From Escherichia coli (GTDB lineage Bacteria; Pseudomonadota; Gammaproteobacteria; Enterobacterales; Enterobacteriaceae): a stretch of DNA of 959 nucleotides. Positions 1 through 959 of this stretch are shown piece after piece. The DNA lies in NCBI RefSeq assembly GCF_003334815.1, contig NZ_QOWO01000112.1; one strand, 5' to 3'. The position numbers were made by a program, and so were the translations under genes. The notes under the pieces are model-generated. The model searched no databases. It was not told the DNA's origin and saw only the letters and a program-made list of their open reading frames with translations. Position 1 is the stretch's first letter. The number at the start of each line of letters is the position of its first letter.

Positions 1-93
1 TGACCGCAGCGGCGAAGCGTACCCTTGCATCCCTGCCAGCCCGGCTAAGATGGAGGCACGGCACAGCCCGCACACGACACGGCGGCCACATAA

Positions 94-126
94 CTGAAAA
101 ACCACAAGGCCATGCCCTGCATGGCC
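94..126 (-). terminator. Second hairpin with T-rich tail: possible backup terminator or RNA 3'-end structure (tentative)
   Basis: Seen in sequence: plus-strand GGCCATG (108..114) / CCCTG loop / CATGGCC (120..126) form a perfect 7-bp stem. On the minus strand it is followed by TTGTGGTTTTTCAG (complement of 94..107). The T-run is separated from the stem by GTGG, so it is weaker than a canonical terminator. No U-tract follows it on the plus strand (GGGTAAAGCGG). Confidence 0.35.
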
Positions 127-181
127 GGGTAAAGCGGAGCCGGCGGCGACGTCCTTTGTGCTCTGTCCGGGGACCGGCAGG

Positions 182-205
182 AAAAAGGCGGGGATTTACC
201 CCGCC
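182..205 (-). terminator. Rho-independent (intrinsic) transcription terminator for the minus-strand CDS
   Basis: Seen in sequence: plus-strand GGCGGGG (187..193) / ATTTA loop (194..198) / CCCCGCC (199..205) form a perfect 7-bp stem with 6 of 7 G:C pairs. On the minus strand the hairpin is followed immediately by TTTTT (complement of A-run 182..186). It starts 7 nt downstream of the TGA stop. On the plus strand the hairpin is followed by AGTGTCATCATTTCC, which is not a clean U-tract, so it is mainly unidirectional. Confidence 0.72.
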
Positions 206-212
206 AGTGTCA

Positions 213-959
213 TCATTTCCGGATTTTTGCCAGGGCATCCGCCATGCTGCGGATTTCGTTCCGGGCTTCCCGGACCACCTCCCGCAGAACACCACGGTCA
301 AACCAGCGGCGGGGCGGTTCATCCGGTATACGCAGCACATCCCAGGCCAGCCAACTGGACAGGATATGTTCAATACAATCGCTGACCAGATACATTTCCA
401 CCGCCGAAAAACGTGCGCCCCGGTTCAGGATGGCGTCGAGCACCACGGGCAGGTTTTCGTCGTCCTCATCGAGCCAGCAGGGGTGATCGCTCTCCTTCAC
501 GACCAGGCGAAAGCGGCGCGTCTGGCGGGTCAGTAACGTCTGACCGGTGGTGGTCAGCGCCGCCCGGATACGCCGCGTATCTTCTGCCACCTGGTAACTG
601 ACACAGCGTACTGCATCGCGTACCGCATCAAGAACTGCCCTGATTTCGTCCTCTGCCAGCCACTCACCGGCATACGGGAAAGACACCTGCGTTCCGTCTG
701 CCGGAAGTACCGGCAGCGACTGCCACTGACTGCCGGACAGTACAAGTTCCGCCCCGGTTCCGGTCAGTTTGTGAATGGCGGAGGCCAGGAGCGGCGGCAG
801 TGCGCCGCCGTGACGGTTGATAAGTAACGTCGCCAGCCGGGGCGCATCCAGCAGAACATAAATGCTGATCCAGCCCGGATGGTTCGGGTTCCGCTGGTCA
901 ACATCCGTCTCTTCCGGCCAGCCCTGCGCCAGCAGCAGGTTGCGGGCGTGACGACAAAT
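213..959 (-). CDS. Hypothetical protein of unknown family, C-terminal 248 aa; 5' end of the gene lies beyond the window edge
   Basis: Seen in sequence: the minus-strand frame is open without any stop from 959 down to TGA at 215..213 (248 codons; an open run this long is improbable by chance even at this GC content). Codon first positions are G-enriched and codons are typical enterobacterial (CTG, GCG, CCG, CAG, GAA, GAT, CGT, CGC). The translation is protein-like (...[29 protein letters not shown]...[17 protein letters not shown]...[33 protein letters not shown]...[25 protein letters not shown]), and an intrinsic terminator follows 7 nt after the stop. The GTG at 686..684 used by the ORF track is preceded by only a weak SD-like GGAA and the frame and codon pattern continue unchanged upstream, so the true start is probably outside the window. 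Product family not recognised. Confidence 0.8.

Follow-up and report, generated by a model that had tools for sequence, protein, structure and literature searches.

Antibiotic resistance spreads through the Enterobacterales mainly on IncF and IncI plasmids, whose leading regions, the parts that enter a recipient first, decide plasmid survival in the first minutes inside a new host. In these regions ArdB/KlcA (PF03230) and ArdA (PF07275) form the anti-restriction module, the ParB-like YfjB (HerB) reprograms host transcription, and PsiB and PsiA are small soluble proteins, of which PsiB works by binding the host protein RecA and not by catalysis. Wen et al. (NAR 2025) describe six pESBL operons whose expression rises strongly in new transconjugants, each behind a hairpin promoter active only as single-stranded DNA. 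According to the same text, class-1 promoters are ssi/Frpo elements, class-2 promoters precede klcA and ardA, where the two 5′ hairpins are alike, and the class-3 promoter, which is included among the transcription starts mapped by 5′ RACE, lies upstream of M.EcoGIX. In plasmid F, it reports, the class 2 and 3 promoters are conserved and the KlcA and M.EcoGIX operons are enriched in transconjugants.

The gene considered here, yffB, belongs to one of the commonest families of this region. Among leading-region-enriched families, the YffB family was no. 10 of the 100 largest, with 3556 members, an enrichment FDR p given as 0 and T-strand orientation; the median distance of its members from oriT was 18 ORFs, and it was labelled “Uncharacterized; Anti-restriction ArdA” (Samuel et al., Nature 2024). 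A literature search under yffB, yubG, ychA, ngrC and the WP accessions found no functional study. The interest of yffB lies in the function of a very abundant leading-region family that has neither a recognised domain nor a structural relative.

YffB is like ArdB and ArdA in its leading-region island, its strand, its probable expression from single-strand promoters and its dispensability in K-12 matings, and these two are the immediate downstream neighbours of YffB-like genes even in distant plasmids. They are unlike it in sequence, profile and fold, between which no similarity was detected: YffB did not match PF03230, and hhalign against the neighbouring ArdB gave a probability of 1.2%. YffB is also longer (258 aa, compared with 141 and 166 aa for ArdB and ArdA) and lacks the strong acidity of a DNA mimic. 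YfjB/HerB, once uncharacterised as well, is another large leading-region family of the same plasmids, and it is zygotically induced, as YffB probably is. However, HerB has recognisable ParB/CTP-binding and HTH modules whereas in YffB no domain could be recognised, and aligning the two with hhalign gave a probability of 0.2%. PsiB and PsiA resemble YffB as soluble leading-region proteins, but they showed no homology to it (hhalign probability 0.1-0.2%) and their operon, driven by Frpo/class-1 promoters according to Wen et al. (NAR 2025), differs from that of yffB.

Identity and plasmid neighbourhood of the gene

The window, by which we mean the whole 959-nt stretch of Escherichia coli DNA that was analysed, carries on its minus strand a reading frame at 213-959, with 248 open codons followed by a TGA stop at 213-215; the frame exits the window at position 959. 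In the identical plasmid pE2863-1 the full-length CDS is 777 nt long and encodes a protein of 258 aa annotated as “hypothetical protein” (WP_001005043.1). The window is therefore short of the first 10 codons only, which lie beyond position 959, and encodes residues 11-258. A preliminary description, made from the letters of the window, had marked this ORF and quoted four segments of its product, and translation returned the ORF and all four segments in their places.

The gene is yffB of plasmid F, which is the same as ychA (Hp11 in pESBL) and yubG. Its product was 93.8% identical to the F-plasmid allele (WP_001005032.1, at 55565-56341 of F), and 241 of 258 residues (93.4%) were identical to YchA/Hp11 of pESBL. 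Two published F-plasmid primers matched the window exactly, “yffB up F” at 452-471 and “ssp2-specific” at 358-380. Family members are named YchA, NgrC and yubG in UniRef and AFDB, yubG being the UniProt name on one member, while the name YchA is used for R100, IncI1 and pESBL and the pESBL re-annotation has YchA/Hp11. PHROG 8919, to which no function is assigned, matched the protein over its full length (residues 1-258, E 6e-137). A tblastn search of 50,697 phage records gave no match, so the PHROG match is no pointer to a phage origin. The gene of the window is thus a catalogued orphan, the same gene as YffB/YchA/YubG/“NgrC”, and nothing of substance sets it apart.

The frame was examined as a possible by-product of base composition. 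The window has a GC content of 62.3%, GC3 of the ORF was 0.69, and the count of 40 G/C in its first 60 nt given in the preliminary description was exact. Since another frame in this DNA has only 2 stops, a long ORF is by itself weak evidence of coding. GC-rich sequence yields long ORFs in several frames, the adjoining hairpin spacers hold apparently spurious annotated ORFs, and databases hold many truncated copies of the gene, all of which would suit a spurious or non-functional ORF. Against this, dN/dS relative to the F-plasmid allele was 0.25 (20.7 non-synonymous and 26.3 synonymous differences), and a Shine-Dalgarno-like AGGGAG lies 5′ of the ATG. Homologues ranged from 93% to about 25% identity and were still full-length with conserved motifs at the lower end. 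The AlphaFold2 model, built from an alignment of 13 sequences, was confident (pLDDT 87.3, pTM 0.81), and AFDB models of members at 18-28% identity had the same fold (TM 0.7-0.86). The probability that the ORF is spurious is negligible, and yffB is real and under selective constraint.

Some database records carry other descriptions of this stretch. The label “DUF1472” belongs to an ORF in another frame that covers the 3′ end of yffB together with the ssp2 spacer; of the candidate ORFs for it, neither matched current Pfam. DUF1380-YffB fusion proteins (375-418 aa) were not taken as evidence of a domain fusion. Nearly all of them were singletons or fell in very small clusters, and they are explained by the 45-nt in-frame spacer between the two genes together with a lost stop codon or frameshifts.

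The preliminary description had taken the GC richness, given an enterobacterial background, as a sign of an accessory or horizontally acquired locus, and the distribution of the gene bore this out. Many E. coli plasmids matched the window at 100% identity. Across complete E. coli genomes, plasmids held 6670 of the 6753 matching places, and 3693 of 5426 genomes carried yffB. In PLSDB at least 5000 records matched; they belonged to Escherichia, Klebsiella, Salmonella and Shigella, and of the matches listed about 80% were predicted to be conjugative. The alternative of a housekeeping family with conserved synteny, which would have made this an ordinary core gene, gave way to a leading-region gene carried by thousands of plasmids. 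The sequence of the window is identical to public records and adds nothing beyond plasmid databases and recent papers.

Inspection of the flanks, which had been proposed as a check, placed the gene in the leading region of IncF/IncI-type conjugative plasmids, between the unit of a single-strand-specific DNA methylase and ardB/klcA and among anti-restriction neighbours. In pE2863-1 the genes on one strand are, in order, DUF1281, the DNA methylase, a 73-aa YubE, DUF1380, yffB and ArdB/KlcA, followed by a second DUF1380, ssb, DUF905, the ParB-like gene, psiB, psiA and ardA. Thus yffB has a DUF1380 gene on one side and ardB/klcA on the other, and the T-strand serves as its template. Plasmid F and pESBL-EA11 have the same gene order around yffB, and an IncF33 study gives the order ycgA/B-ychA-klcA-ycjA (PMC10654068). 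This position between the methylase and ardB/klcA, which is not visible from the window, is the decisive context for the gene.

At 23-40% identity, family members occurred in the leading regions of further plasmids, on metagenomic contigs and in Scandinavium and Paramixta. In every contig long enough to judge, the YffB-like gene stood directly upstream of ArdB (PF03230) or ArdA, and this synteny was kept at 25-30% identity in unrelated leading regions. The methylase/YubE/DUF1380 trio was present in one divergent locus (L011) and missing from three others (L003, L005 and L009). Since loci lacking the methylase still have ArdB or ArdA downstream, the stable partner of YffB is the anti-restriction module with its promoter spacer, not the methylase.

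Hairpins and the transcription unit

All leading-region genes are coded on the minus strand of the window, and the plus strand is therefore the template. It is also the transferred strand, which enters the recipient 5′ to 3′ from oriT, itself located beyond ardA. The four genes methylase (a homologue of M.EcoGIX), YubE, DUF1380 and yffB are separated by gaps of 0, 13 and 45 nt. Past the yffB stop, at 182-205 on the minus strand, the hairpin scan and RNA folding found an intrinsic-terminator-like hairpin, GGCGGGG-TAAAT-CCCCGCC followed by TTTTT. Its stem-loop (205-187) starts 8 nt past the stop, has 7 G-C pairs, folds at -21.2 kcal/mol (z -2.4) and is unique within 21 kb of the plasmid. It likely marks the end of the methylase-yffB transcription unit. 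From the short gaps (0-45 nt) and the terminator after the last gene, we infer that yffB is co-transcribed with the methylase. The zygotic induction in the available text of Wen et al. (NAR 2025) is stated per operon, and yffB is not individually named there.

A sigma-70 promoter scan of the window returned 0 sites, and an Rfam search of it gave nothing near a gathering score. Upstream of the methylase-yffB unit, the transferred strand has a hairpin-forming single-strand promoter, and the T-strand spacer there folded far better than its shuffles (z -6.2). Downstream of yffB, window positions 1-156 (plus strand) form a block that recurs at 93.6% identity upstream of ardA on the same plasmid (3054-3210 of plasmid stretch L001), a shared class-2 ssDNA-promoter sequence. 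This repeat corresponds to the likeness of the klcA and ardA promoters described by Wen et al. (NAR 2025). Inside the block, at 103-126 on the minus strand, lies a second hairpin, GGCCATGCAGGGCATGGCC, with a T-rich tail. Positions 9-69 (plus strand) are the 3′ arm, on the transferred strand, of the long class-2 hairpin ssp2, the promoter of ardB/klcA (yfgB), as found by ssDNA folding and an inverted match. Its partner arm maps to L001 9833-9900, beyond the window. Folded as ssDNA, the 417 nt that separate yffB from ardB (L001 9796-10212) form this long hairpin, with window positions 9-69 as its distal arm, at -106.5 kcal/mol (z -4.9).

The position of ssp2 between yffB and yfgB has been reported before, and ssp2 stalls complementary-strand synthesis until it is resolved by UvrD (Fraikin et al., bioRxiv 2026). 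Loss of ssp2 mattered in the natural strains HS, IAI1, B and ED1a. YffB could be a DNA-processing accessory on the incoming strand. It would then assist the single-strand-specific methylase M.EcoGIX, or else act at the neighbouring ssp2 hairpin, perhaps by influencing how the promoter is used or how long synthesis of the complementary strand is delayed. Such a role would suit a gene that seems to share an operon with the methylase in both IncF and IncI plasmids and that directly adjoins ssp2, and it would suit the conserved Arg and Trp residues of the protein. However, divergent homologues occur without an adjacent methylase, and the ssp2 conversion delay persists under rifampicin, with plasmid-encoded causes ruled out (Fraikin et al., bioRxiv 2026). 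The net charge of YffB is moreover negative, its surplus of Arg relative to Lys is in keeping with a GC content of 62%, and fold searches detected no nucleic-acid-binding fold. We consider a DNA-processing role quite improbable.

Protein features and searches for relatives

YffB has a mass of 29.1 kDa, a pI of 5.7 and a net charge of -5, with 26 Arg to 4 Lys, an excess that is compositional given DNA of 62% GC. It is modelled as a soluble, mildly acidic alpha/beta protein. In the AlphaFold2 prediction the N-terminal half comprises H5-21, E29-31, E42-48, H49-60, H66-75, E81-86 and E100-103. The C-terminal half comprises a long helix (H113-145), a hairpin (E151-156/E160-167), H180-190, a second hairpin (E193-203/E208-220) and H232-256. 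Residues W24, P25, A144, R155 and E166 are invariant in the family and W172, R220, P222, W229, A242 and R243 nearly so, with further invariant or near-invariant positions at G23, F160, A192 and P225. The family alignment contained no conserved His, Cys, Ser or Lys and no Asp-containing constellation. C131 is common in the family and is a Ser in the allele of the window. Lacking conserved residues of a catalytic type, the pattern is suggestive of a scaffold or a binding protein more than of an enzyme.

The features singled out in the preliminary description differed in their conservation. The Arg-rich basic patch (residues 154-165; 495-530, minus strand) is there as described and coincides in the alignment and the AlphaFold2 model with the conserved beta-hairpin (E151-156, E160-167), including the invariant R155, while the invariant E166 lies just past it. 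The acidic cluster is also present, at residues 172-181 (447-476, minus strand), though in the alignment its D/E run is not itself conserved: what persists is the nearly invariant W172 and a loop that tends to be acidic in the closer homologues. A C-terminal helix had been proposed for residues 234-258 (216-290, minus strand), and AlphaFold2 predicted one at 232-256. Conservation there is concentrated in the preceding motif DVLRxPGxPxRxWFDR (R220, P222, W229) and, within the helix, in A242-R243. The fourth quoted segment, read from the translation, comprises residues 194-204 (378-410, minus strand). A tandem YffB-linker-YffB AlphaFold2 run, a crude homodimer test scored by pTM and pLDDT, gave 0.64 and 79.9 respectively, a hint at a homodimer that is suggestive at most.

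Searches for relatives outside the family were made with sequences, profiles and structures. Pfam, queried with YffB and 13 family members, gave no match better than E 0.18, NCBIfam gave no match with YffB, PADLOC found 0 families, and the best match in the PDB, by sequence and by profile, was at E 0.26. When 1.84 billion representative proteins were searched exhaustively with phmmer, 181 matches came up, and those aligned or checked were members or fragments of the YchA family. Single-sequence and profile word-index searches of a cluster set of 5.8 billion sequences gave, among the matches listed, only hypothetical proteins of Enterobacterales. The family profile was also compared by hhalign with 18 other leading-region proteins of the plasmid, including ArdA, ArdB, PsiA, PsiB, YfjB, both DUF1380 genes, DUF1281 and the methylase, and all probabilities were at or below 1.2%. 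The structure prediction and Foldseek search that had been proposed as a check gave the confident model described above and, against AFDB50, 50 best matches that all fell within the YffB family; the top ones were named YchA, NgrC and yubG, with TM up to 0.98. As far as these tools can resolve, the predicted fold appears confined to its own family. That the preliminary description could place the protein in no known family was borne out for Pfam, NCBIfam, PADLOC and the PDB, but not for the literature and databases in which it is already named YffB/YchA/YubG and grouped as PHROG 8919. With no domain match and no fold relative outside the family, the decision to withhold a function was sound.

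The label given by Samuel et al. (Nature 2024) would make YffB a divergent ArdA-type DNA-mimic anti-restriction protein. It arose because 10 of the 3556 family members match the ArdA HMM or structure, and in some plasmids the gene does stand directly upstream of ardA. However, neither YffB nor the 13 members matched PF07275, and hhalign against the ArdA of the same plasmid gave a probability of 0.3%. The surface of a strongly acidic DNA mimic was also not found, and with a net charge of -5 and a pI of 5.7 YffB is no classical DNA mimic. Sequence and fold comparison effectively refute an ArdA-type identity, which we regard as highly improbable.

Candidate roles in the recipient

Our preferred reading is that YffB is a non-enzymatic, early-expressed binder of a recipient factor, probably of a defence system. 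We give it a probability of roughly 0.4, and it is its binding and anti-defence mechanism that we infer. It draws on the identity of the window to plasmids, the leading-region neighbours on one strand, the apparent operon structure, the enrichment of the family in leading regions, the synteny with ArdB/ArdA, the selective constraint on the protein, the missing enzyme signature and the dispensability of the gene in K-12 matings. Under this reading yffB would be the last gene of a four-gene leading-region unit, methylase-YubE-DUF1380-YffB. Right after entry, the hairpin promoter upstream of the methylase (class 3, ssp3), active only as ssDNA, would fire, and transcription would pass through yffB and terminate at the stem-loop (205-187). 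The hairpin promoter that follows, ssp2, with an arm at window positions 9-69, would then drive ardB/klcA. YffB would thus be made within minutes of entry from a single-stranded template. It would act stoichiometrically and without catalysis, binding and neutralising a factor of the newly invaded cell; the likeliest target would be a defence or restriction component that E. coli K-12 lacks.

Transposon data from pESBL bear on the last point. With a K-12 recipient, YchA/Hp11 scored 1.00 for non-essential and 0.00 for required-for-transfer, and ardB and the methylase scored similarly (Yamaichi et al., NAR 2015). For the methylase of pESBL, a role appeared only with restricting recipients. The cassette of the published M.EcoGIX::gent mutant may silence yubE, DUF1380 and ychA too. 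Against an anti-defence binder, PADLOC, the fold search and hhalign found no similarity of YffB to known anti-restriction or anti-CRISPR proteins. Likewise, in screens that included Foldseek, 3546 of the 3556 family members had no match in the anti-restriction set and 3553 had none in the anti-CRISPR set (Samuel et al., Nature 2024).

YffB may be the founding member of a new anti-defence fold, inhibiting an enterobacterial immune system outside the coverage of ArdA, ArdB and the methylase, a proposal that we find rather doubtful. In one version of it, YffB may block a methylation-dependent nuclease (type IV, Mrr/Mcr-like), which may otherwise attack DNA promiscuously adenine-methylated by the operon partner M.EcoGIX. 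If true, a new anti-defence fold would explain why a top-ten leading-region family has stayed without a function in K-12 assays. The gene yffB is a reasonable anti-defence candidate and a good candidate for experiment, and not a new discovery.

A position in the leading region is no proof of anti-defence, since the neighbouring YfjB/HerB reprograms host transcription. YffB could similarly be an establishment or host-reprogramming factor that modulates the physiology, transcription, replication or repair of the recipient. The two families have the logic of zygotic expression and the genomic region in common, and the lack of resemblance to known anti-defence proteins would fit a role of this kind. 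No DNA-binding or regulatory domain was detected by Pfam in YffB or the 13 members, however, the close, ancient association of the gene is with ArdB or ArdA and not with ssb, psiB or yfjB, and the pESBL TnSeq showed no fitness or maintenance effect. Host reprogramming is, in our view, unlikely, and early binding of a defence component remains our preferred reading. Once found, the target of YffB would reveal a new anti-defence mechanism or another host manipulation during establishment. A conserved host target, as host reprogramming would have it, suits the 90-95% identity that is kept widely across plasmids. The allele of the window was a rarer variant, with 73 records at an identity of at least 99% compared with 3347 records at 90-95%.

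The ssp2 element and the end of yffB

The window holds just one half of ssp2, the class-2 single-strand promoter that drives ardB/klcA (yfgB). Positions 9-69 (plus strand) form the distal arm of its long ssDNA hairpin and pair with positions 9833-9900 of L001, the plasmid leading-region locus carrying the window sequence, which lie outside the window. In addition, ssp2 stalls complementary-strand synthesis until it is resolved by UvrD (Fraikin et al.). On the same plasmid, a second copy of a 157-nt block was found upstream of ardA (window 1-156 against L001 3054-3210, 93.6% identity). That copy, too, has an inverted partner, at L001 2885-2938. The repeat agrees with published work in which the klcA and ardA promoters are alike, and the recurrence explains why the genome search returned two places per record.

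Two hairpins were found downstream of the yffB stop codon. The first (window 182-205, minus strand) has the clean shape of an intrinsic terminator, with a stem of seven G-C pairs and a TTTTT tract behind it. The other hairpin (window 103-126, minus strand) is part of the repeated class-2 block. Jointly they may block read-through and so insulate ssp2.

In some records a “DUF1472 domain-containing protein” or “hypothetical protein” was called over the 3′ end of yffB and the ssp2 spacer, and in some another such ORF was called over the spacer of ssp3, the class-3 promoter upstream of the methylase gene. ORFs of this kind over promoter spacers lie at L013 2150-2722 and, on the minus strand, at L001 9768-10373 and 12465-12776. 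In the pO157-type plasmid record (CP051801.1, L013) yffB was left uncalled despite an intact copy. The Arg/Cys/Pro-rich ORF at L001 9768-10373, a counterpart of the annotated ORF, had no match in current Pfam and looks like a GC-driven artefact overlying a hairpin promoter.

DUF1380 and the genes around yffB

The spacer between DUF1380 and yffB (L001 10990-11034) is 45 nt long and in frame, and contains a GC hairpin, GCCGCCtccgGGCGGC, directly before the ribosome-binding site. Since the spacer is in frame, one lost stop codon is enough to join DUF1380 and YffB into a single protein, and the 418-aa database entries are explained in this way; those of 375 aa probably arose by frameshift. Almost all DUF1380-YffB fusions were singletons or formed very small clusters.

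In the most divergent YffB-like loci, L005 and L009, a conserved 156-aa protein (encoded at L005 3608-4078 and L009 6443-6913) was found upstream of the YffB-like gene. The two proteins were 48.7% identical, had no Pfam domain and were only faintly similar to DUF1380 (E 0.1-0.3). It is possible, if unproven, that a DUF1380-like and a YffB-like gene form a two-gene module.

In pESBL, yubE, DUF1380 and ychA (yffB) lie downstream of the M.EcoGIX locus (L012 1783-3958) in the same apparent operon. The restriction-evasion phenotype of the published M.EcoGIX::gent replacement in this plasmid was credited to the methylase. Since the replacement sits upstream of these three genes, part of the phenotype could stem from their polar loss.

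Database copies and a tandem model

Many of the 181 representatives at 50% identity were fragments or frame-shifted (e.g. P0010, P0046, P0048, P0117 and P0132). Their abundance suggests that the GC-rich yffB is often mis-sequenced, misassembled or turned into a pseudogene. The 83 matching places in E. coli chromosomes are probably integrated plasmids. When YffB was modelled as a YffB-(G4S)6-YffB tandem (AlphaFold2, alignment A3), both copies stayed folded, with a pTM of 0.64 judged only against the rough expectation of a lower value for two independent halves; the model hints at a homodimer.
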